Below, piece by piece: positions 3,560 through 36,423 of a stretch of DNA of 64,000 bases. Each line of letters opens with the position of its first letter. Position 1 is the first letter of the stretch. The DNA lies in assembly GCA_903934035.1 (NCBI GenBank), contig CAIZMK010000056.1, positions 3,039-67,038 of the forward strand, in the 5' to 3' direction. Both the position numbers and the translations under genes were made by a program. This DNA is from an uncultured Methylococcaceae bacterium. Its GTDB lineage: Bacteria; Pseudomonadota; Gammaproteobacteria; Methylococcales; Methylomonadaceae. The notes under the pieces are model-generated. The model worked only from the letters and a program-made list of their open reading frames with translations. It made no database searches and had not been told where the DNA came from.

Positions 3560-3624
3560 GCATAGCCAATATGCATTGGCTAATCATTTCCCTCCCTCTC
3601 CCCCCCGAATTTAGGACATGTCTT

Positions 3625-3888
3625 TTGAAACGACTTTTTGTAGGAAACTTACCTAGCGACGCCACTGAAGAAAGTGTGCAATCTTTATTTTCAGAATACG
3701 GCAAAGTGCGCTCCATCCAACTTGTTGCCGACATTTTTAGTGGCAAATGCAGAGGCTTCGGTTTTGTCGGCATGGAAGGTCACGAAGCCAGAGCTGCTAT
3801 CGCAGCACTAGACGGCAATTTATATTGCGGAAAACCTTTAAAAGTTAAATTTGAAGAACCCGCTACCGGAAAAAACGGTAGACGCTAA
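3625..3888 (+). CDS. RRM-domain RNA-binding protein (probable TTG start at 3625; ORF track extends to 3571)
   Basis: LFVGNL (RNP2) and RGFGFVGM (RNP1); AGGA lies 8 nt upstream of TTG-AAA-CGA. Confidence 0.92.
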   Translation: MKRLFVGNLPSDATEESVQSLFSEYGKVRSIQLVADIFSGKCRGFGFVGMEGHEARAAIAALDGNLYCGKPLKVKFEEPATGKNGRR

Positions 3889-4088: not shown

Positions 4089-4105
4089 CTGGCACAAGTT
4101 CTGCT
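4089..4105 (+). promoter_or_regulatory. Sigma54 (-24/-12) promoter of the GH15-glk operon
   Basis: CTGGCACAAGTTCTGCT fits TGGCAC-N5-(T)TGCW with exact GG-N10-GC spacing, 52 bp before the ATG at 4157. Confidence 0.7.
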
Positions 4106-4156
4106 AACTATTTTTTATGCCCATATTTATACACTGAAATTAACCACACCCTAACT

Positions 4157-7100
4157 ATGAATAATTCTAACGAAAAATTGGATATCTATTTCCAACAAGT
4201 TCAAGACATCATTATTAAGCGGCAAGATTGGATTACTGGCTTATTACCAGCGAGTACAGCTGTCACAGTACACGGCAACTATACCGATGCCTGGGTTAGA
4301 GATAATGTTTACAGCATACTTGCGGCATGGGGCTTAGCACTGGCTTACCGGCGCACTGAAAAGGATCATGATCGCACTTATGTACTCGAGCAAAGCGTAG
4401 TCAAACTGATGCGTGGTTTATTAACAGCAATGATGCGCCAAGCACCTAAAGTAGAAAAATTCAAACAATCTCAAAATCCCTTAGATGCTTTACATGCCAA
4501 ATACGATACTAAATCAGGCGCTTGTGTCGTTGGTGATAACGAATGGGGACATTTACAACTAGATGCCACGTCTTTATTTTTATTAATGCTAGCGCAAATG
4601 ACCGCTTCTGGCTTGCGCATCGTTTTTACTATTGATGAAGTCAATTTTGTGCAAAATTTGGTGCACTATATTAGTCGCACTTATCGCACACCCGATTATG
4701 GCATCTGGGAGCGAGGTCACAAAACAAACCAAGGTATTGCCGAACTCAATGCAAGCTCCATCGGCATGGCAAAAGCCGCCTTAGAGGCACTTTCTGGTTT
4801 TAATTTATTTGGCAAAGACGGCGGTCAAGCCTCTATTATTCATGTCATCAGTGATGACATCGCTAGAACACGAATTACTTTAGAAGCGCTTTTACCTAGA
4901 GAATCTATTTCTAAAGCTGTTGATTCTGCAGTACTCAGCATTACTGGCTTTCCAGCATTTTCTGTTGATAATCAAAACCTACGAGCAAAAACAGAGACAC
5001 TCATTTGTGAAAAACTTGAAGGTCGTTATGGTTGCAAACGTTTTCTATTAGATGGTCATCAAACGGTTATAGAAGATAGCCAGCGCTTGCATTATGACGC
5101 TCATGAACTTAAACAATTTATGGATATTGAATGTGAATGGCCTTTATTTTTCACGTATTTACTGTTGAATAATTTATACGCAGGCAACCATGAAGCCGCC
5201 TTAAGTTATCGCCATAAACTCGAAAGCTTGTTAGTTAAGCAAAATGAACAACTTTTATTACCCGAACTCTATGTCGTACCTATCGATTTAATTGCCGCCG
5301 AAAAAGCTAAACCCCATAGTCAAGATCGTCTGCCTAATGAAAACATTCCTTTAGTGTGGGCACAAAGTCTTTTTATATTAGGCTGTCTAATCCAAGATGG
5401 CTTGCTAGATTGTGATGATATTGATCCCTTAGGGCGACACAAAGTTGTTAAAAAAACTAATCACGTCAAGTTACAAATTCAGTTATTGGCTCAAGATGAG
5501 ATAGTCCAAAATACTTTAAAAGAACACGGTATTAACACACAAACCCGCGCTGAAATTGCCCCTATTCAAATTAGAGACGCAAGCGAATTAGCTGAAGCCT
5601 ATACGCATGTCGGTCGAAATGATCGTATAGGCATCACCGGCAGACCTCTGCGTCAGTTGCGAACATTAGCCACTTCAAAAATGTATAATTTAGCGGGTGA
5701 GCCTTTATTATTCTTGCCGCAATGCCTTAATCAAAAAGGTTTTTATTTGGCGATGGACAACCATTTACTGATTCAGCGTTTACGCTTAGAAATGTCCTAC
5801 ATCTATCGCCACTGGGATAAATTGGGCAATCCAGTCATAGCCATTTCTATCAAACAAAATATGCTGAACAACCAGCATCGCGACATATTAATCAACTTTA
5901 TTAAGGAACTGCAACAAGGCGTCTCTCAAGGCTTTGCCATTGAACTAGGAACACTATTAGATTTCACTGAAACATCTAGCCATGAAAAAATAAAAAACTT
6001 ACATGACTTTCAATTCTCTGAGGCTTCTTGGGAAGATGCTGAACGACCTTTTTTACATGCATTACCCAGCAACACAGAGCCCTCAGCCCCATTAAATACT
6101 TTGCTATTGAATGAATGGGATCTGGCTAGTGACGAAACCTTAATCATGCTATTAAAAACTCATAGCAATCTTTATGTACAAGTTGAAGCACTGAGTTTAC
6201 TAAGCTTAAGGCATGATTTAGCTTTCAATACCACCCTTAGCAGCGATGACAATACGGCTAGCGTAGGAGATTTACTAGAAGAAGTCTATGAACGAGCAGG
6301 CGATCAACATGTTTGGAGCATTGTTAGACGCTGCGCCAGCTTACTCGGCAAATATGATATTAATTTAGAGCAGGCAGCAACCGAAATACTGGTTCGCCAA
6401 CACGCACTTACTTTAGGACGAGCATACAGTGGCAAAGCTACTTTAACGCGCCCAGCAGATTCTTCAGAAATATTACACATCATCAATACCTACAATAGCG
6501 ATGCCAGTGAACGCATTATTGTTCAAGAACTCGTGGTTTATTTAGGTATGTTGATAAAATCTAACCCCGAACTATTTGACGACATGCATACTTTACGCGT
6601 CGGTCATATTTTGCAATTAATTATTGTCAGGCAACAAAGGGAAACTGGCTGTGGCTCCTTAGATGAAGCTTTTAATGAAATCATGGCCATGCCTCCCTAT
6701 CAATTATCTAACAAACTTAAAGAAATGTTGGATGACATTAACAATACCGAAGATCAACTCGAATCAGCAGAAATGCTCCATTTTGAGGGCAGTCATCATA
6801 AAATTAACCGAGCAATTTTCTCGAAAGCCATGGATCCTAAAGATCAAGGTGACACCATCAATTGGTATGAATGGCGTGAGCAGCAAGGTAGTGTAGGAAG
6901 AGAAAACAGTGCATTTTATGCGGGTCTCTGGGATATTTTGCATCATTGCAAAGGTTTAATGATGGGAGAAAAACTTAACAGCAAATATCGTTTAGATAGC
7001 GAAACAATTTTGTCACAGATGACCGAAGGTGAGCAAAGCTTTAAAATACAAGTTAATCACGTACTTAATAAAATACAAGCACCTGTTTATCGTCAATTAA

Positions 7101-7351
7101 CCGTAGAGGCTTTAAAAGCCATGGCGTCTATTTTTAGAGCCAATGACGCCTTACACATTGATGATAATTTATTAACGGATATTATTATTGGTCATGCCGT
7201 AAGAATTAGCTGGCTAAATGAACATCCAGACCAAACTGAACATTATGAAACCATGACAGCACTGGCTTGGCAATATTTTTACAGCTTGCCTCCACATAAA
7301 GTGGCCAATGCTATACTGGATGCTCTCATTCATCTACTCGATAACAACTAA
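4157..7351 (+). CDS. GH15-like protein, homologue of eukaryotic phosphorylase kinase alpha/beta regulatory subunits
   Basis: Motifs AWVRDNVYSILAAWGL, WGHLQLDATS, DYGIWERG, ELNASSIGMAKAALEAL, IECEWPLF closely follow the PhK-alpha N-terminal GH15-like domain as I recall it; 1064 aa. Confidence 0.88.
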   Translation: MNNSNEKLDIYFQQVQDIIIKRQDWITGLLPASTAVTVHGNYTDAWVRDNVYSILAAWGLALAYRRTEKDHDRTYVLEQSVVKLMRGLLTAMMRQAPKVEKFKQSQNPLDALHAKYDTKSGACVVGDNEWGHLQLDATSLFLLMLAQMTASGLRIVFTIDEVNFVQNLVHYISRTYRTPDYGIWERGHKTNQGIAELNASSIGMAKAALEALSGFNLFGKDGGQASIIHVISDDIARTRITLEALLPRESISKAVDSAVLSITGFPAFSVDNQNLRAKTETLICEKLEGRYGCKRFLLDGHQTVIEDSQRLHYDAHELKQFMDIECEWPLFFTYLLLNNLYAGNHEAALSYRHKLESLLVKQNEQLLLPELYVVPIDLIAAEKAKPHSQDRLPNENIPLVWAQSLFILGCLIQDGLLDCDDIDPLGRHKVVKKTNHVKLQIQLLAQDEIVQNTLKEHGINTQTRAEIAPIQIRDASELAEAYTHVGRNDRIGITGRPLRQLRTLATSKMYNLAGEPLLFLPQCLNQKGFYLAMDNHLLIQRLRLEMSYIYRHWDKLGNPVIAISIKQNMLNNQHRDILINFIKELQQGVSQGFAIELGTLLDFTETSSHEKIKNLHDFQFSEASWEDAERPFLHALPSNTEPSAPLNTLLLNEWDLASDETLIMLLKTHSNLYVQVEALSLLSLRHDLAFNTTLSSDDNTASVGDLLEEVYERAGDQHVWSIVRRCASLLGKYDINLEQAATEILVRQHALTLGRAYSGKATLTRPADSSEILHIINTYNSDASERIIVQELVVYLGMLIKSNPELFDDMHTLRVGHILQLIIVRQQRETGCGSLDEAFNEIMAMPPYQLSNKLKEMLDDINNTEDQLESAEMLHFEGSHHKINRAIFSKAMDPKDQGDTINWYEWREQQGSVGRENSAFYAGLWDILHHCKGLMMGEKLNSKYRLDSETILSQMTEGEQSFKIQVNHVLNKIQAPVYRQLTVEALKAMASIFRANDALHIDDNLLTDIIIGHAVRISWLNEHPDQTEHYETMTALAWQYFYSLPPHKVANAILDALIHLLDNN

Positions 7352-7362
7352 AGGAATTTAAC

Positions 7363-8334
7363 GTGATACTTGCAGGCGACATAGGTGGAACAAAAACCGT
7401 ACTTTCTCTTTTAAGCAAAGATGCAGATGGCGTTCTAAGTTGCTTAAAAGAACAGTCATACGCTAGTCAGCAGTTTGCCGAATTTGATGATATTTTGACG
7501 GACTTCATACCCAGCCCAACTACTATCAAATCAGCCTGCTTGGGTATTGCAGGCCCCGTCGTTGATCAACGCTGCCAAACCACTAATTTACCCTGGCTGT
7601 TAGATGCAGAGCTCTTAAAACTAAAACTCGGCATCACTCAGGTTAAATTACTTAATGACCTAGAAGCTATGGCCTTGGGTATGTTGCATTTACCTGAACA
7701 TGAACTACTAGAACTCAACCCTAATGCAGAAACTCAAACCGGCAATTGCGCGGTGATTGCAGCAGGCACTGGTTTAGGTGAAGCGCTACTTTATTGGGAC
7801 GGTCAGCAGCATCATGCCATAGCTACTGAAGGTGGACATACTGATTTTGCTGCTCAAAACAGCTTACAAATTCAACTACTAGACTTTCTAAGTAAACAGC
7901 ATCCTGAACATGTCAGTTACGAGCGCATATTGTCAGGCATAGGCTTTAGTCATCTTTATGATTTTCTGTGCGAACTAAAAATTGCTCCCCCCTGTTCTGA
8001 AGTAGACAATATTAGCAAAGACATGGATAGAAATGCCCTGATCTCTGAATTAGGCATTACGAATAAAGACCCCTGCTGCACAGCGGTGCTAAAGTTATTT
8101 ATTGAAATTTATGGCGCAGAAGCTGGCAACCTTGCCTTAAAATCCCTAGCAACAGGTGGCGTTTTTATAGGCGGAGGCATAGCTCCTAAAATTTTACCCG
8201 CACTGCAAAATGGTGATTTTATGCAAGCCTTTAAAGCTAAAGGTCGCTTTGAAGCTATGCTTAATAAAATGTCAGTTAAATGTTCACTTAATCCACGCAC
8301 CCCGTTAATTGGCGCGATACATTATTTTAATTAA
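7363..8334 (+). CDS. glk: Glucokinase (E. coli Glk type)
   Basis: LAGDIGGTKT, LLNDLEA, AAGTGLGEA, TEGGH, GGVFIGGGIAPKI; GTG start 11 bp after the GH15 stop. Confidence 0.95.
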   Translation: MILAGDIGGTKTVLSLLSKDADGVLSCLKEQSYASQQFAEFDDILTDFIPSPTTIKSACLGIAGPVVDQRCQTTNLPWLLDAELLKLKLGITQVKLLNDLEAMALGMLHLPEHELLELNPNAETQTGNCAVIAAGTGLGEALLYWDGQQHHAIATEGGHTDFAAQNSLQIQLLDFLSKQHPEHVSYERILSGIGFSHLYDFLCELKIAPPCSEVDNISKDMDRNALISELGITNKDPCCTAVLKLFIEIYGAEAGNLALKSLATGGVFIGGGIAPKILPALQNGDFMQAFKAKGRFEAMLNKMSVKCSLNPRTPLIGAIHYFN

Positions 8335-8398
8335 CACTCAGGTAAACTTTAAGGAGGATAGCAAATCAAGCCATAAAAATATTAGGCTCAACTCTGTT

Positions 8399-8426
8399 AG
8401 CCTTGAGCCTTGAGCCTTTAGCCTTG
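8399..8426 (+). repeat. Short tandem heptamer repeat (AGCCTTG/T x4)
   Basis: AGCCTTG AGCCTTG AGCCTTT AGCCTTG read directly. Confidence 0.8.
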
Positions 8427-8477
8427 AGGATACCTCAACTTTAACTTAAACAACCCTCCAACTACCTATATTAAAAA

Positions 8478-8924
8478 ATGATATCTATAGCCGACATACC
8501 CACTGCCAGCAATGCGATTAGAGATGCCGTAACACCGGTATTTTTAATCACTGGCATAGGCTCCATTCTTGGCGTACTCACTAATCGCTTAGGCAGAGCG
8601 ATTGATCGCTATCGAATATTAAGTGAAATGAAATATCATGATCTTTCATCCAGCTCACTTCATGAAATAAAAACTATTTCCAAACGCATACATTGGATGA
8701 GAAGAGCTGTTAGCTTATGCACACTATCAATTTTATGCGTTTGCCTTACCATCGCCTTCTTTTTTATTGCCGTAGAATTTAATATCGAATCAACAAGGAC
8801 CATCGCCATTTTATTTATCACCGCCATGTTGACATTAACCTGTGGTTTATTATGTTTCATGCGTGAAATATCATTGGCAACTAATGAAACTTTCGATATC
8901 GATACCTTGATAAAACCTAAATAA
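8478..8924 (+). CDS. Small membrane protein, DUF2721-like
   Basis: AIRDAVTPVFLITGIGSILGVLTNRLGRAIDR N-terminus and two C-terminal TM helices. Confidence 0.75.
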   Translation: MISIADIPTASNAIRDAVTPVFLITGIGSILGVLTNRLGRAIDRYRILSEMKYHDLSSSSLHEIKTISKRIHWMRRAVSLCTLSILCVCLTIAFFFIAVEFNIESTRTIAILFITAMLTLTCGLLCFMREISLATNETFDIDTLIKPK

Positions 8925-8949
8925 AAAAACAGAGTGACTAGATTTAAAG

Positions 8950-8997
8950 CGCTCCTAATAAGTGCGGCATTTGCTGCTTATGCACTTTGTTGGTGCA
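8950..8997. promoter_or_regulatory. Tandem NtrC-type enhancer boxes
   Basis: CGCTCCTAATAAGTGCG (8950-8966) and TGCACTTTGTTGGTGCA (8981-8997) against consensus TGCACCA-N3-TGGTGCA; centres 31 bp apart. Confidence 0.7.
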
Positions 8998-9053
8998 AAA
9001 AATCAATGCCACAATTATCTCCATAGCGATCTCTTTTAACATTGGATGGAAAT

Positions 9054-9138
9054 ATAGGGTGCTGAGGAACGAAACGCATTATTTGTCTTTTATCGATTGA
9101 TGCGTCTACTTCGTCATTCTATCGCTAACCCGACCTAC
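9054..9138. repeat. Hybrid REP doublet (GGGTGCTGAGGAACGAAACGCA arm plus CTAACCCGACCTAC arm)
   Basis: Left arm of one REP family; right end matches the GTAGGTCGGGTTAG family seen at 17210, 23391 and 59714. Confidence 0.6.
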
Positions 9139-9313
9139 ACAAAACCTTAACTATGGGCTGTTTATAACTCTTTCAATTATTTACAGTAGATTATCGGTAT
9201 TAATACTTATATTTTTTAGGGCTTTCTTTTGCTCTAATGCTCTGGTTTAATCAACATTCTGCTGTCATTTACTAAGCACCTATTCGAATCATCAACATCT
9301 ATTTTAATTACTA

Positions 9314-9329
9314 TGGCATAGCTATTGCT
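9314..9329 (+). promoter_or_regulatory. Sigma54 (-24/-12) promoter of the ATP-grasp operon
   Basis: TGGCATAGCTATTGCT = TGGCAT-N5-TTGCT, 60 bp before the ATG at 9390. Confidence 0.8.
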
Positions 9330-9389
9330 TTTAACTCTAGTGTGAATACAAAAAATATTTTAACGAAAGACTTCTTCATAAGATAAAAC

Positions 9390-10820
9390 ATGGATACGAA
9401 AACTTTAAAAAAATATTTTAACGAAATGTATGCGGACAATGGCGCCGTTAGGGACATTTACGAACGCTACGGGAACTGGTTAAAAGACCTACCTGATGGC
9501 ACTTTAGAGCGCAGGAATGCAGAAGCGGAATTATTATTTCGTCGGCTAGGCATTACTTTTGCCGTTTACGGTGAAGATGCAGGTGAAGCAGAGCGATTAA
9601 TTCCATTTGATATAGTCCCTAGGATTTTCGGTGCCTCAGAATGGCAACGCTTGGAGCTAGGACTTAAGCAACGTGTGCGAGCACTTAATGCCTTTTTACA
9701 TGATATTTATCATGATCAAGAAATCATCAAAGCCGGCATCATTACTGAGCAACAAGTACTGAACAATGCTCAATATAGACCTGAGATGAAAGGCGTCAAT
9801 TTACCTAATCAAGTTTATGCCCATATTGCTGGAATTGATTTAGTACGGATTGCTGAAAATGATTTTTATGTTTTAGAAGACAATCTCCGCACTCCTTCTG
9901 GAGTTTCGTACATGCTTGAAAACCGCAAAACCATGATGCGGTTATTTCCGGAACTATTTGTCAAACACGCCGTTGAGCCAGTCGAGCATTATCCACAAAT
10001 GCTACTCAACACGCTTCGAGAAGCTGCGCCGCCGAATGTTGCTTATCCCGTTATTGTGGTAATGACACCGGGCTCTTATAACAGTGCTTATTTTGAACAT
10101 GCTTATTTAGCCAGCCAAATGGGCGTGGAACTCGTCGAAGGTCAGGACTTGTTTGTACATCAACAAAAAGTCTACATGCACACCACCGAAGGCCCTCAAC
10201 AAGTCCATGTTATTTACCGTCGGGTCGATGATGACTTTATTGACCCTCGTGTATTTCGTCCAGACTCAACACTCGGCGTACCTGGATTAATGGAAGCTTA
10301 CTGTAGTGGCAATGTAGCCTTAGCAAATGGCGTAGGTACCGGTGTTGCTGACGATAAATCTACTTATTTATTCGTACCGGAAATGATTCGCTTCTATCTA
10401 GGCGAAGCGCCGATATTATCCAATGTCCCCACTTGGCGCTTAAGTGAATCTGAAGACTTAAGTTATGTACTCGCACACTTACCAGAACTGGTTGTTAAAG
10501 AAGTACAAGGTTCTGGAGGCTATGGTATGTTAGTAGGACCAACCAGCTCTAAAGCTGAAATAGAGGCCTACAGACTTCGTATTCTGGCAGAGCCCGCTAA
10601 ATTTATTGCCCAGCCAACCTTAGCCTTATCTTCCTGTCCAACTCTCGTTGAATCAGGCGTTGCACCACGTCATGTCGACTTAAGACCTTTTGTCTTATCT
10701 GGCAAAGACGTTCGCATCGTACCAGGTGGATTAACACGAGTGGCACTTACAGAAGGCTCATTAGTGGTTAATTCCTCACAGGGCGGCGGCACGAAAGACA
10801 CTTGGGTATTGGAGGATTAG
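9390..10820 (+). CDS. Circularly permuted type 2 ATP-grasp protein (DUF404/407)
   Basis: GITFAVYG, IPFDIVPR, VLEDNLRTPSGVSY, YFEHAYLA, IYRRVDDDFIDP, VDLRPF, VNSSQGGGTKDTWV. Confidence 0.93.
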   Translation: MDTKTLKKYFNEMYADNGAVRDIYERYGNWLKDLPDGTLERRNAEAELLFRRLGITFAVYGEDAGEAERLIPFDIVPRIFGASEWQRLELGLKQRVRALNAFLHDIYHDQEIIKAGIITEQQVLNNAQYRPEMKGVNLPNQVYAHIAGIDLVRIAENDFYVLEDNLRTPSGVSYMLENRKTMMRLFPELFVKHAVEPVEHYPQMLLNTLREAAPPNVAYPVIVVMTPGSYNSAYFEHAYLASQMGVELVEGQDLFVHQQKVYMHTTEGPQQVHVIYRRVDDDFIDPRVFRPDSTLGVPGLMEAYCSGNVALANGVGTGVADDKSTYLFVPEMIRFYLGEAPILSNVPTWRLSESEDLSYVLAHLPELVVKEVQGSGGYGMLVGPTSSKAEIEAYRLRILAEPAKFIAQPTLALSSCPTLVESGVAPRHVDLRPFVLSGKDVRIVPGGLTRVALTEGSLVVNSSQGGGTKDTWVLED

Positions 10821-10821
10821 T

Positions 10822-11793
10822 ATGTTATCTCGCACCGCTGAAAATTTATTTTGGATGGCTCGCCATATCGAACGCGCAGAAAATACCGCACGCGTACTTG
10901 ATGTTGCACATCGAACCTCTTTATTACCACTTGATATAGAAGGTACTCAAGCCTATTTGTGGTACGCACCCCTCAATATAACTGGGTGTGCTGATAGTTA
11001 CGAAGTCAAATATGGCTTAGCAAGAGCTGATGCAGTGAGTCATTATATGGCTTTAGATCCAGACAACCCCACCAGCATCTATAATTGCCTTAAACTTGCC
11101 CGAGAAAATGCTAGAACAGTACGCGGCGCTATTACTACAGAAATGTGGGAAGTTATTAATGATACTTGGCTAGAGCTTAATCGCTTACCCAAGCAAATGG
11201 ACTATGAAAATTTTCGTGATTTTTTCGATTGGGTGAAGAATCGTTCACATTTATTTCGCGGAGTCACCTTAGGTACTATCATCAAAGATATCGGGCTAAG
11301 TTTTATCAAACTAGGCACATTTCTTGAGCGTGCTGACAATACTGCACGCATATTAGATGTCAAATATCATATATTACTACCCAGCCTTGATCATATCGGC
11401 GGTGCCGCTGATTATTATCAATGGGGATCTTTACTTAAGTCTGTCAGTGCTTTTGAAGCTTACCAAAAAACTTATCGTGATGTTATTTCGCCTCAACGCG
11501 TCAGTGAACTACTGATTTTTAGAGACGACATGCCTCGCTCTCTACATGCCTGCATGGATGAAGTGGAAAGCGCCTTAATAGCTATTAATGGGCACTCAGG
11601 AAAAGAAGCGAGGCGATTGGCCGGTGAACAACACGCCGCCCTGCATTTTGGCCTTACTCAAGATGCCTTTAGCGACGGCTTACATGAATTTCTTACTGAC
11701 TTCTTAAAAAATACCGCCCTATTAAGTCGAGAAATTCGTGAGGCTTATTTATCACGTCAAGAAACAGCATTGATTCGACAACTAACCACTTAA
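10822..11793 (+). CDS. Alpha-E domain protein (DUF403)
   Basis: MLSRTAENLFWMARHIERAENTAR and a second LERADNTARILDVK (ER motifs); 1 bp after the upstream stop. Confidence 0.92.
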   Translation: MLSRTAENLFWMARHIERAENTARVLDVAHRTSLLPLDIEGTQAYLWYAPLNITGCADSYEVKYGLARADAVSHYMALDPDNPTSIYNCLKLARENARTVRGAITTEMWEVINDTWLELNRLPKQMDYENFRDFFDWVKNRSHLFRGVTLGTIIKDIGLSFIKLGTFLERADNTARILDVKYHILLPSLDHIGGAADYYQWGSLLKSVSAFEAYQKTYRDVISPQRVSELLIFRDDMPRSLHACMDEVESALIAINGHSGKEARRLAGEQHAALHFGLTQDAFSDGLHEFLTDFLKNTALLSREIREAYLSRQETALIRQLTT

Positions 11794-11901: not shown

Positions 11902-14900
11902 ATGACCATACGCGTTGCTATACGTCACAAAACAATCTACCGGTTTGATAGACCCGTATCATTATCACCTCATGTCTTTAGATTACGTCCGGCTGTCCAT
12001 AGTCGCACCCCAATCAAAGCTTATGCCTTGCGTATTGAACCGAAAAACCATTTCATTAATTGGCAACAAGACCCGTTTGGCAATATTGTTGCCCGCGTGG
12101 TATTTCCTGACAAATGTCAAAAACTCAGTGTTGAAGTTGAAGTTATCGCTGACATGACCGTCATTAACCCTTTCGACTTTTTTGTTGAAGCGTATGCCGA
12201 AAACTATCCTTTTAATTACGACGAACAGACATTTAAAGAACTACAACCTTATTTAGAAATTACTGAAGATGGTCCATTATTAAAGGAATGGATCAAAAAA
12301 TTAGATACCAGCAAGCGCTCCATCAATGACTTTATTGTCGATATTAATCGCCAAATTTTTGCCGCTATTGGCTATAACATTCGAATGGAAGTCGGCATAC
12401 AAAGTTGTGAAGAATCCTTATCTAAATTAACCGGTTCTTGCCGAGATTCTGCTTGGCTGTTAGTACAAGTACTCCGCCATCTTGGACTCGCGGCTCGTTT
12501 TGTATCGGGCTATTTGGTGCAACTCACTTCTGATATAAAATCACTCGATGGACCCTCAGGCCCTGAACAAGACTTTACCGACTTACATGCTTGGACAGAA
12601 GTCTATATCCCTGGAGCAGGCTGGATAGGCTTAGATCCTACTTCTGGATTATTAACCGGTGAAGGACATATTCCCTTAGCCTGCACTCCCGACCCTGCAA
12701 GTGCCTCACCGGTAACGGGTGGTACTGATAAATGCAAAGTGGAGTTTGAATTTTCCAATACTGTCGATCGTTTACATGAAGACCCTAGAGTTACTAAACC
12801 TTATACCGATGAACAGTGGTATCACATTGATGCTCTGGGAAAACTCGTAGACCAACGTTTACTTGAAGATGATGTTCGACTTACGATGGGCGGTGAACCG
12901 ACCTTTGTTTCTGTTGATGATATGGAAGGTGATCAATGGAATACCCAAGCCGATGGCGCCAAGAAACGTGAACTCGCTCAACAATTAACACTACGTTTAC
13001 GAGATGCTTTTGCCAAAGGTGCGATGCTGCATTATGGCCAAGGCAAATGGTATCCTGGCGAACCCTTACCTCGTTGGCAATATGGTATCTTTTGGCGTAA
13101 AGACGGTACTGCACTTTGGCGCAATCCAGAATTGCTTGCTGACATTAATAAAGATTATGGGTACACCGTCAAACACGCACAAAAATTTATACAACAAATC
13201 AGTCAACATTTAGATATTCCTACTCGTTATATCAAAGCAACCTTTGAAGATAGTTTTTATTATCTATGGCAAGAAGGCACTTTGCCCGAAAACATTGATC
13301 CATTAACATGCAATTTAAAAGATCCCATCGAACGCAAAACTTTAACAAAATTATTAGATGCTGGATTAAATCAACCTGCCGGTTTTGTTCTTCCTATTAA
13401 ATGGAACTGGCTAAACCAATGTTGGAAAAGTGGCCCATGGGATTTCCGTCGTGGTGCTTTATATTTAATCCCCGGCAATTCACCAATCGGTATGCGCTTA
13501 CCCTTAGCCAGCCTGCCTTGGGTTGCACCTGATAAACGCGATTCATCAGAGCCTCAAAGCCTCTTTGAAGATTTACCTGAGCTAGAAGATTACTATGGTG
13601 AAGTAACAAGACGCTATAGCCAGTTGATTACCAAAACCAAAGAACATCCAGAAATTATCGAACAAGAAACTGGAGATACCGTCGCGCAAGAAGTAGAAGT
13701 GCCGCATACCGCCTTGTGCGTAGAAGCCCGAGAAGGTCGATTGCACATCTTTATGCCACCCTTAACAACACTAGAACATTATCTTGAACTCATTGCAGCG
13801 ATTGAAGCGACCGCAGCAAACCTAGCTATGCCTGTGGTAATAGAAGGTTATGAGCCTCCTCGTGATTATCGTGTCGAACGCTTAATGGTAACGCCAGATC
13901 CAGGCGTTATTGAAGTGAATATACATCCGTCTAAAACATGGGAAGAGTTAGTTGATAAAACCACGTTACTTTATGATCTAGCTCACAAAACTAGACTCGG
14001 TACCGAAAAGTTTATGCAAGATGGTCGCCATACCGGAACAGGCGGAGGCAACCACATCACTATGGGCGCAGAAATGCCCACAGACAGCCCTCTATTACGT
14101 CGCCCGGACTTATTGCGCAGCTTAATTACTTATTGGCAACATCACCCGGGCCTATCTTATTTATTTTCGGGTATGTTTATAGGCCCCACCAGCCAAGCGC
14201 CGCGTGTTGATGAAGGTCGTGATGAAAAGCTCTATGAACTTGAAATTGCCTTTCAACAAATGCCTGAAGGTGAAACGCCAGCTCCTTGGTTAGTCGATAG
14301 ATTATTAAGACATTTATTAACCGACATTACTGGCAATACTCATCGCTCTGAATTTTGTATTGATAAGCTTTATTCTCCAGATAGCTCTACAGGGAGATTA
14401 GGCATACTCGAACTGCGTTCTTTTGAAATGCCTCCTCATGCCCAAATGTCTTTAGTGCAAACGGTATTATTACGCTCGTTGATTGCTTGGTTTTGGCGTG
14501 AACCTTATAAACATGATCTAGTTCGCTGGGGAACAGAGCTACATGATCAATTTATGTTGCCGCATTATGTTCGCGAAGACATGAAACAAGTCACTCAAGA
14601 TTTACAAAGAGCTGGCTTCGGCTTTGATATGGAATGGTTAGATCCATTTTTTGAATTCCGCTTTCCTCGTTATGGCAATACCCTAGTCGACGGCATTGAC
14701 ATGGAATTACGTTTCGCCATTGAACCCTGGCATGTACTGGGTGAAGAAATGAGTAGTACCGGCACCGCTCGCTATGTGGACTCTTCGGTAGAGCGAGTAC
14801 AAGTATTAGTGACTGGATTTAATCATGCACGTTATGTCATTTCTTGTAATGGCAGACGTTTGCCTATGCGCAAAACGGCACATCACGGTGTGTTTGTTGC

Positions 14901-15300
14901 TGGCGTTCGATATCGTGCTTGGCAGCCGCCTTCTGCATTGCATCCTACTATCGCTCCTCATGTACCCCTAGTATTTGATGTTATCGATACTTGGAATGGT
15001 CGCTCTGTAGGTGGCTGCACTTATTATGTAGCTCATCCTGGCGGACGTAGCTATGACGATTTCCCCGTCAATGATTATGCTGCGGAAACACGACGTATGA
15101 CTCGATTTTGGGATTATAATCATACACCTGGCGTTATTATTCGGCCTCCATTGGCAAGCACTGAGATTCCTGCTTCTGAGCAAGCTTTACTGGCAACCTT
15201 TAGTGTGACTAAAGAAGCCCCAAGAGCTATGTCGCCACCCGCTGAAGAGTTAAGTACTGAATATCCATTTACACTAGACTTAAGACATCGCAGTCATTAA
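11902..15300 (+). CDS. Transglutaminase-like domain fused to DUF2126 putative amidoligase
   Basis: GSCRDSAWL / DLHAWTEVY / GLDPT (Cys-His-Asp triad), then MGGEPTFVS, GVIEVNIHP, GTGGGNHIT, LELRSFEMPP. Confidence 0.92.
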   Translation: MTIRVAIRHKTIYRFDRPVSLSPHVFRLRPAVHSRTPIKAYALRIEPKNHFINWQQDPFGNIVARVVFPDKCQKLSVEVEVIADMTVINPFDFFVEAYAENYPFNYDEQTFKELQPYLEITEDGPLLKEWIKKLDTSKRSINDFIVDINRQIFAAIGYNIRMEVGIQSCEESLSKLTGSCRDSAWLLVQVLRHLGLAARFVSGYLVQLTSDIKSLDGPSGPEQDFTDLHAWTEVYIPGAGWIGLDPTSGLLTGEGHIPLACTPDPASASPVTGGTDKCKVEFEFSNTVDRLHEDPRVTKPYTDEQWYHIDALGKLVDQRLLEDDVRLTMGGEPTFVSVDDMEGDQWNTQADGAKKRELAQQLTLRLRDAFAKGAMLHYGQGKWYPGEPLPRWQYGIFWRKDGTALWRNPELLADINKDYGYTVKHAQKFIQQISQHLDIPTRYIKATFEDSFYYLWQEGTLPENIDPLTCNLKDPIERKTLTKLLDAGLNQPAGFVLPIKWNWLNQCWKSGPWDFRRGALYLIPGNSPIGMRLPLASLPWVAPDKRDSSEPQSLFEDLPELEDYYGEVTRRYSQLITKTKEHPEIIEQETGDTVAQEVEVPHTALCVEAREGRLHIFMPPLTTLEHYLELIAAIEATAANLAMPVVIEGYEPPRDYRVERLMVTPDPGVIEVNIHPSKTWEELVDKTTLLYDLAHKTRLGTEKFMQDGRHTGTGGGNHITMGAEMPTDSPLLRRPDLLRSLITYWQHHPGLSYLFSGMFIGPTSQAPRVDEGRDEKLYELEIAFQQMPEGETPAPWLVDRLLRHLLTDITGNTHRSEFCIDKLYSPDSSTGRLGILELRSFEMPPHAQMSLVQTVLLRSLIAWFWREPYKHDLVRWGTELHDQFMLPHYVREDMKQVTQDLQRAGFGFDMEWLDPFFEFRFPRYGNTLVDGIDMELRFAIEPWHVLGEEMSSTGTARYVDSSVERVQVLVTGFNHARYVISCNGRRLPMRKTAHHGVFVAGVRYRAWQPPSALHPTIAPHVPLVFDVIDTWNGRSVGGCTYYVAHPGGRSYDDFPVNDYAAETRRMTRFWDYNHTPGVIIRPPLASTEIPASEQALLATFSVTKEAPRAMSPPAEELSTEYPFTLDLRHRSH

Positions 15301-35679: not shown

Positions 35680-36423
35680 TTATGCAGCTTCTACGAAAGC
35701 GGTGCTTCCGAACCATTTGCCGAAGAAATGCCACAAGAAGTATATTAAGATACTCACGAAACCAGAGAAGAACGCTGATACTGGAGCAACGTCTTTACCG
35801 AATGTTCTTAATGTACCTTTTTCTACCATTCTGATATATTCAGGAGTACCAGTTCTAACATAGTGGTAACCTTGTAAATCAGCTAAAGTCATCATCATGC
35901 CATTATATTCTACTGGCACGTGTAATGGAGCAATAACAGGCCAGTTACCTGGGTAGAACAATAAGCCATAAGCTAATCCACCGATAACAGCAGTTACAGT
36001 CATACTACCTGACAACATCAACACAACATCAAGAACAATAGCGCCTGGCATTAAGTTAGATGGAAATACGAAATTCACTGGGAAATAAGTCCAACCCCAG
36101 AAATTTAAGTATCTGTTGATCCACTCACCTAAAAGAAGACCTAAAATACAAACTACCGCACCGAAAGGTAAACGGTATCTCCACCACAATACAGCTTGAA
36201 CAGCAGCTGGGAAAGTGATAGAAACGATTGGAGCTACAGTTACCCATAGACGTCTATCTTTCCAATCAGTCCAGAAATCCCAGTCACCACCGGTTAACAT
36301 ATAGTGAATGTGATAACCACCAAGTACAACGAAGAACAATGTAAACAAAATTAGCCAATCGAACGTGCGAGAAGCTTTTACTGCTTCAGCGCGTGAACGT
36401 ACAGCTGATTGAGATGCGCTCAT
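35680..36423 (-). CDS. pmoA: Particulate methane monooxygenase subunit A (true start ATG 36423, 247 aa)
   Basis: MSASQSAVRSRAEA, GGDWDFWTDWKDRRLW, YVRTGTPEYIRMVEKGTLRTFGKDV; GGAGG RBS before 36423. Confidence 0.99.
   Translation of the reverse strand: MSASQSAVRSRAEAVKASRTFDWLILFTLFFVVLGGYHIHYMLTGGDWDFWTDWKDRRLWVTVAPIVSITFPAAVQAVLWWRYRLPFGAVVCILGLLLGEWINRYLNFWGWTYFPVNFVFPSNLMPGAIVLDVVLMLSGSMTVTAVIGGLAYGLLFYPGNWPVIAPLHVPVEYNGMMMTLADLQGYHYVRTGTPEYIRMVEKGTLRTFGKDVAPVSAFFSGFVSILIYFLWHFFGKWFGSTAFVEAA

Follow-up and report, generated by a model that had tools for sequence, protein, structure and literature searches.

A phosphorylase kinase alpha/beta-like gene paired with glucokinase in a gammaproteobacterial methanotroph: a predicted glucose-releasing hydrolase behind a sigma-54 type promoter

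The DNA analysed here is a stretch of 64,000 nucleotides (hereafter the window) from contig CAIZMK010000056.1 of an uncultured Methylococcaceae bacterium (GCA_903934035.1). It carries a gene for a bacterial homologue of the phosphorylase kinase (PhK) subunits alpha and beta, here called the PhK-like gene, with the glucokinase gene glk immediately behind it. We propose that the PhK-like protein is a cytoplasmic hydrolase of the glycoside hydrolase family 15 (GH15) type, which frees glucose from glycogen-derived glucans and feeds it to glucokinase, and that the two genes form an operon driven by sigma-54; we put the probability of this proposal at roughly 0.6. The activity and the substrate are predictions; what the analysis itself establishes is the homology, the conservation of the two catalytic glutamates, the linkage of the genes, the footprint of the promoter, and that rpoN and glycogen genes occur in the same genome. 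That such genes are linked, repeatedly and independently, to those for glucokinase and glycogen enzymes is our chief argument for the release of glucose from glycogen-derived glucans. A preliminary description of this locus had proposed such a module; its observations are partly confirmed, the genes being real and one residue having been mis-assigned, and its interpretation is partly supported.

Identity, domains and catalytic residues of the large protein

The likeness to PhK alpha claimed in the preliminary description, which had called for a search against PHKA1 and PHKB, proves to be very strong. In a phmmer search of the PDB sequences, the protein matched PHKA1 (8jfk_M) at E 3.1e-219 and PHKB at E 1.2e-165; the PHKA1 alignment consists of three collinear stretches (query residues 2-608, 634-858 and 888-992), and the first 600 residues are ~55% identical to human alpha. 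Pfam recognises KPBB_C (Table 1) and a Glyco_hydro_15 domain (PF00723, 268 bits, cut-off 22), the latter corresponding to domain D1 and placing it in the (alpha/alpha)6-barrel family GH15, and a profile of D1 matched PHKA1 at E 4e-193. An AlphaFold model built from 28 sequences (predicted local distance difference test score, pLDDT, 82.6; predicted template modelling score, pTM, 0.80) was matched by Foldseek to PhK alpha and beta chains over ~1090 columns, with template modelling (TM) scores of 0.69-0.76 on the target, those for PhK alpha (human PHKA1; 8JFK, 8Z5M) being 0.72-0.76. Residues 300-306 of the model fall below a pLDDT of 50, like the catalytic acid loop discussed below. Pfam, the collinear alignment and the whole-chain structural match together reveal the full-length five-domain architecture of PhK alpha/beta: D1 to D5 are collinear with those of PhK alpha, D1 is of the GH15 type with both glutamates, and the chain ends in a KPBB_C tail. 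The C-terminal half, which had been left unexplained, is now explained, because the KPBB_C tail and D2-D5 align with PhK alpha.

The protein differs from PHKA1 in being ~160 residues shorter. The alpha inserts at PHKA1 ~613-736 and ~963-1036, which carry the regulatory phosphorylation sites, face only query residues 609-633 and 859-887, and the C-terminal end (...IHLLDNN) lacks the CaaX farnesylation motif. Judged by its sequence, the protein is a complete, insert-free version of PhK alpha/beta. No signal peptide was seen by eye. Bacterial homologues are labelled in databases as "glycoside hydrolase family 15 protein" or "phosphorylase kinase alpha/beta subunit", so the family is already annotated.

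The next Foldseek matches were to the GH15 glycosidases 5z3a and 7c24 (E ~1e-8, TM 0.70-0.73 on the target), which we take to be the isomaltose glucohydrolase of Kribbella flavida. The window protein shares the (alpha/alpha)6 barrel and the glutamate acid/base pair with these and with the classical GH15 glucoamylases, glucodextranases and trehalases, but it is only 15-17% identical to 5z3a and 7c24 and has ~630 extra residues (D2-D5) that no characterised GH15 enzyme has.

In human PhK alpha, Glu185 and Glu371 have been named as the catalytic pair, and human PhK beta is without some of the catalytic residues (PMC10978961). E185 (motif GIWERG) and E370 (LLPELY) of the window protein align with these two glutamates of PHKA1, in keeping with the acid/base arrangement of GH15. 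The preliminary description had stated that both catalytic glutamates are kept, in GIWERG and in IECEW. The pair is indeed present, and GIWERG does hold the predicted general acid, opposite human Glu185, but the second assignment was wrong: the predicted general base is E370, and IECEW forms a separate conserved block. Neither E185 nor E370 varies in our alignments A1 (16 sequences) and A3 (28 sequences) of diverse bacterial homologues, down to ~35% identity. Both glutamates occur in nearly all bacterial-type and alpha-type representatives; most beta-type subunits carry K, Q, R or M in the place of the base. Since human alpha showed no activity with the same two glutamates, residue conservation alone is weak evidence of activity and no proof of it. 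In P0143 and P0186, full-length homologues that form a small bacterial clade, the catalytic motifs are gone: AYLSSAP or FWESHP stands in place of IWERG and, in P0186, PNQN in place of PELY; pseudo-enzyme forms therefore occur in bacteria too.

Linkage to glucokinase and to glycogen genes

The downstream gene, already called glk in the preliminary description, encodes a true glucokinase. Its product scores 248.7 bits with the equivalog model TIGR00749 (cut-off 225.45) and 336.7 bits with PF02685, and it is the one glk that our search of the genome found. Both open reading frames are present with the 11-nt gap that had been described; this gap holds the ribosome-binding site AGGAA, and the GTG start of glk follows six bases past it. 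From this layout, the boundary is a normal operon junction, and the two genes are probably co-transcribed as one operon.

KPBB_C was found in 73 of the 201 sampled Methylococcales genomes, that is, in 20 of 52 genera and in two families only, as well as in the control genome of Synechococcus elongatus. Homologous stretches numbered at least 566 in a scan of species-representative genomes. The 80 best of them, from which the taxa given here are drawn, include those of Methylobacter, Crenothrix, Methylovulum, Methylomonas and Methylotuvimicrobium buryatense, a methanotrophic Bathymodiolus mussel symbiont, Thiohalobacterales and Thiomicrorhabdus, and many cyanobacteria at ~49% identity. Homologues are also found in Plasticicumulans, Cellvibrio and Caulobacterales; the eukaryotic members come from animals (alpha and beta), Corallochytrium, chytrids, Blastocladiella and Ramicandelaber.

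The preliminary description had made its case depend on a linkage of the GH15-type gene to glk in relatives. Such a linkage is present in 18 of the 20 Methylococcales genus-level loci, where glk lies directly downstream of the PhK-like gene, and it extends beyond Methylococcales: glk also adjoins in Thiohalobacterales, in Thiomicrorhabdus and in a metagenome-assembled genome labelled Sphaerotilus (protein identity ~50-64%), and in most further gammaproteobacterial loci, including those of non-methanotrophs (L075, L076, L089, L099; 50-52% identical). The gene pair is thus widespread and not unique to this window. Four Methylobacter-group loci (L040, L046, L049, L077) have the PhK-like gene with no glk within 4 kb downstream, which indicates that the pair can be separated; the first three of these keep the sigma-54 box described below.

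In other, independent clades, the PhK-like gene is found among genes of glycogen and Entner-Doudoroff metabolism. For instance, locus L121 has the order pgl-edd-glk-eda-glgB-[PhK-like gene]-glgX-malQ, and in Caulobacterales (L120) the order is glgB-glgX-malQ-[PhK-like gene], with a 4-nt overlap. The gene is divergent from glgB-glgX-glgC in Plasticicumulans (L117-119), precedes glgB and a CBM48 amylase gene in L116, and is convergent with eda-edd-glgC in L029, L073, L074 and L079, where glk is missing. At the cyanobacterial loci, the sole recurrent neighbour (12 of 33) is a divergent 242-aa gene, by eye of the WecG/TagA glycosyltransferase type, from which no functional lead was gained.

The host of the window is a gammaproteobacterial methanotroph, as confirmed by pmoA (AMO family, 435 bits) at ~35692-36402 (-) of the same window. 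Its genome has glgC, glgB and glgA together, as well as glgP, glgX, edd, eda and a weak malQ-like match, and it has no GH15 gene other than the PhK-like gene. When glk or gdh/glk are mutated in Methylotuvimicrobium alcaliphilum, glycogen is lost and glucose or trehalose builds up; the authors inferred a permanent breakdown of glycogen to free glucose via MalQ, GlgX, GlgP and trehalose enzymes (PMC8062543). The window glucokinase belongs to the same family as those studied in M. alcaliphilum 20Z and Methylomonas sp. 12, where mutants tie Glk to glycogen turnover and free glucose; a GH15/PhK-like gene goes unmentioned in these papers (PMC6406325, PMC8062543). The related M. buryatense 5G carries the same gene pair (L061), with a glk 62% identical to that of the window. 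If our proposal is right, the PhK-like gene would supply an unnamed source of the free glucose used by Glk, glucose dehydrogenase and gluconate kinase (PMC8062543). The glycogen-to-glucose-to-glucose-6-phosphate module of the preliminary description has therefore gained strong support that is comparative in kind, from the linkage to glk and to glycogen and Entner-Doudoroff genes.

The sigma-54 type promoter

A -24/-12 promoter had been noted ahead of the PhK-like gene, and the call of a sigma-54 promoter for the operon is well supported by a comparative footprint and by the presence of rpoN in the genome. The box reads TGGCAC-N5-CTGC, which is close to TGGCAC-N5-TTGC, and contains the GG-N10-GC core; the pattern TGGCACN5YTGCW has a single match in the window, with 0.11 expected. 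A box of the form TGGC-N8/9-TGC[TA] lies 59-148 nt upstream of the ATG in 31 of the 34 loci with at least 70% protein identity, which are of the Methylobacter group, versus none of 34 distant, mostly cyanobacterial loci in the same range. Among the relatives the flanks of the box cannot be aligned and the upstream gene differs, which marks the box as a footprint rather than a background shared by descent. Methylomonas, Methylotuvimicrobium, the mussel symbionts and the non-methanotrophs carry the gene pair without the box, which is hence a trait of the Methylobacter group.

The genome encodes four enhancer-binding proteins, namely NtrC (TIGR01818, 710.7 bits) and one each of a response-regulator, a PAS and a sensor-less type, none of them on this contig. 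A relaxed form of the box pattern occurs 96 times in the genome, once before a PII (glnB/K-like) gene; PII genes are a classic sigma-54 target. The promoter shares the GG and GC doublets and their canonical spacing with NtrC-type sigma-54 promoters, and the host has rpoN, NtrC and three other activators; unlike such promoters, its upstream region lacks the dyad described next and no activator is encoded nearby. In 17 of the 34 close relatives (including L036, L039, L032, L063, L065, L037 and L040), a dyad G[CG][AG]C-N-TTTT[TC]AGTGC[AG] lies 130-400 nt upstream of the box, always on the strand of the gene. This dyad has the GCAC-N7-GTGC spacing of NtrC sites and scores 13-14 out of 15 in those relatives, compared with at most 12 in 34 control loci; the best match in the window scores 11/15 and lies inside the gene for an RNA-binding protein (RRM gene) upstream. 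Which activator and which signal act on the promoter can only be inferred. A scan for sigma-70 promoters and terminators did no better than on shuffled sequence. We came across no published report in which sigma-54 controls genes for glycogen hydrolysis.

Another of the 96 copies of the relaxed pattern, TGGCATAGCTATTGCT at 9314-9329 (+), is a second sigma-54-like box, 61 nt upstream of a circularly permuted ATP-grasp gene (9390-10820). Beyond that gene come an Alpha-E gene (10822-11793) and an open reading frame of 1132 aa (11902-15300). With the boxes at 4090 and 9314, there would be two sigma-54 promoters within 5 kb.

Table 1. Features of the PhK-like gene/glk locus (positions in the window)
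Feature	Position	Strand	Remarks
Sigma-54 type -24/-12 element TGGCACAAGTTCTGCT	4090..4105	+	GG 4091-92, GC 4103-04; 67 nt upstream of the ATG
PhK alpha/beta-like gene	4157..7351	+	1064 aa; GH15-type D1 plus D2-D5; protein ends ...IHLLDNN
D1, GH15 (alpha/alpha)6-type catalytic domain	4157..5461	+	~aa 1-435
E185 codon (GIWERG), predicted general acid	4709..4711	+	aligned with human PHKA1 Glu185; codon checked
E370 codon (LLPELY), predicted general base	5264..5266	+	aligned with human PHKA1 Glu371
KPBB_C domain	6656..7345	+	aa 834-1063; PF19292 308.2 bits, cut-off 27
AGGAA, ribosome-binding site of glk	7352..7356	+	adjoins the TAA stop (7349-7351) of the PhK-like gene
glk, ATP-dependent glucokinase	7363..8334	+	323 aa; GTG start

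Proposed mechanism, alternatives and origin

In the mechanism that we propose, the operon would be transcribed from the sigma-54 promoter, which implies that an enhancer-binding activator is needed, and the PhK-like protein would act in the cytoplasm as an exo-acting hydrolase, with E185 as the acid and E370 as the base. It would split free glucose off glycogen, or off the maltodextrins and limit dextrins left by GlgP, GlgX and MalQ. Glucokinase would then turn this glucose into glucose-6-phosphate, which would enter the Entner-Doudoroff, pentose-phosphate or glycolytic routes. The neighbours glk, glgB, glgX, malQ, edd and eda of the bacterial relatives point to this release of glucose from glycogen. 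If the mechanism holds, hydrolytic glycogen use would be under sigma-54 control in the Methylobacter group, which matters for carbon storage and for engineering.

Several observations weigh against this proposal. The nearest enzyme by fold (5z3a/7c24) prefers alpha-1,6 links, which makes the proposed substrate less certain. At the 33 cyanobacterial loci, neither glk nor any glycogen gene adjoins the PhK-like gene. Searched against the PDB, the D1 profile reached only PhK alpha and beta at E<=1 and no classical GH15 chain; D1 is therefore far from the characterised glucoamylases, and its catalytic assignment rests on the structure paper of human alpha and on the fold search. The loop with the catalytic acid (aa 177-194; pLDDT <50) is the least confident part of an otherwise good model; the reason may be flexibility of the loop, or too little constraint from the alignment of 28 sequences. 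The window holds no NtrC-type site at up to one mismatch, and the 268-nt intergenic region ahead of the operon is without an activator site. [quoted passage not shown]

The protein might release glucose from something other than the alpha-1,4 chains of glycogen, such as alpha-1,6 stubs or isomaltose-type links at branch points, trehalose from TreYZ or TreS, or another small glucoside, and its linkage to glk is compatible with any substrate that yields glucose. The nearest fold is that of the small GH15 glycosidase 5z3a/7c24, and the entry 5Z3F of the same group has been overlaid on human D1-alpha (PMC10978961). The M. alcaliphilum glk mutants accumulate trehalose, in a study that names no trehalase (PMC8062543), and the window protein has a weak NCBIfam match to the GH15 trehalase TreH1 (E 3e-4). 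However, that match reaches 19.5 bits against a cut-off of 820, and the genes that recur beside the PhK-like gene are glgB, glgX, malQ and glgC, and not treY, treZ or treS; we consider a different substrate unlikely. A tight operon with glucokinase, maintained across lineages that are ~50% identical, would be hard to explain without a glucose product, and this argues against a protein whose intact pocket binds glycogen, or a partner such as GlgP, without catalysis, and which would serve as a silent scaffold or regulator of glycogen breakdown. The catalytic pair and its surrounding motifs are, moreover, invariant in the aligned bacterial sequences, and no PhK-gamma-like partner is linked in the window. 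Such a scaffold would nevertheless have a precedent in human alpha, which keeps this catalytic pair yet displays no detectable activity (PMC10978961), and would suit the degenerate bacterial members (P0186, P0143), the kinase-like-fold gene that overlaps one distant member (L115), and the non-catalytic D2-D5, which are conserved across all bacterial members and must serve some purpose. Taking both sides together, we find the scaffold quite improbable.

The operon could also owe its transcription to an ordinary sigma-70 promoter, or to read-through out of the upstream RRM gene, the -24/-12 match having no role. This would fit the weak hairpin after the RRM gene, the want of an evident activator site in the window and the gene pairs that lack the box outside the Methylobacter group, but it leaves unaccounted for the box at a similar distance in 31 of 34 loci despite differing flanks and upstream genes. 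With no sigma-70-like site reported between 3889 and 4156, and with the same pattern preceding the PII gene of this genome, we doubt strongly that the box is without function. Between a bacterium and an animal, an identity of ~55%, as seen here with human alpha in the first 600 residues, is unusually high and might raise the suspicion of a recently captured animal PHKA gene, or of eukaryotic contamination of the assembly. We rejected this as hardly credible: the gene shares a 68.7-kb bacterial contig with pmoA, homologues abound in the Methylococcales and species-representative genomes counted above, and the bacterial sequences fall outside the alpha, beta and fungal clades and lack the alpha-specific inserts and the CaaX end.

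Our careful tree, built from 56 sequences, recovers alpha, beta and the fungal group each as a monophyletic clade (100/100). A single branch (83/93) has the 28 bacterial sequences all to one side, none of them within these three clades; the window protein is placed in a gammaproteobacterial clade (100/100). This topology argues against a recent capture from animals and indicates that the duplication into alpha and beta postdates the split of bacteria from eukaryotes. Midpoint rooting put the root inside the bacteria in a quick tree of 89 rows, and in the 56-row tree it set the core eukaryotes apart from everything else; because of this shift, we dropped the claim that the eukaryotes are nested within the bacteria. 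The preliminary description had seen in the protein a catalytically active, ancestor-like form of PhK. "Ancestor-like" is fair for the architecture; the history it implies is unproven since the root moves between trees, and catalytic activity is not established, as human alpha keeps the same glutamates and showed no activity.

A glucoamylase-like domain was reportedly recognised in both large PhK subunits in 2003. Cryo-electron microscopy in 2024 showed an active site of alpha that is apparently intact yet inactive, and the meaning of this was left open (PMC10978961). The bacterial relatives, which keep the catalytic pair and have no kinase-specific inserts, offer a direct test of the role of the PhK body outside the kinase. 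Unlike PhK alpha, the window gene is paired with glucokinase and has no kinase or calmodulin partner beside it, and whereas human alpha is without detectable hydrolase activity, the window protein is a predicted enzyme. Speculatively, and we would not expect it to be correct, the five-domain body of PhK alpha/beta could have begun as a bacterial glycogen hydrolase, in which D2-D5 already assembled the protein or docked it to a partner, for example glycogen phosphorylase or a protein that resembles a kinase; the kinase holoenzyme would have been built on it, and the silent site of human alpha would be a relic. The docking idea was hinted at by the overlapping gene of L115 (GCA_037969395.1, JBBKXJ010000299.1).

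That gene (9260-10492) overlaps the PhK-like gene of its locus (6001-9270) by 11 nt and encodes a 410-aa protein with Kdo and DUF4032 domains, the Kdo domain having a protein-kinase-like fold. As a lead to a partner it was set aside, being seen in one locus only and without a homologue in the genome of the window. No kinase gene adjoins the PhK-like gene in the window, and no genome-wide search for a gamma-type kinase was made.

The 5' neighbour of the operon is the RRM gene (105 aa, 3571-3888, +; PF00076, 65 bits). It occupies this position only in the window and in L035, its closest relatives, which suggests that the upstream region was rearranged recently. Downstream of glk lie a DUF2721 gene and then the operon of the circularly permuted ATP-grasp and Alpha-E genes. 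The 143-nt spacer after glk holds no convincing terminator; it contains a tandem run of the heptamer GCCTTGA, in four near-copies, at 8400-8430 (+).

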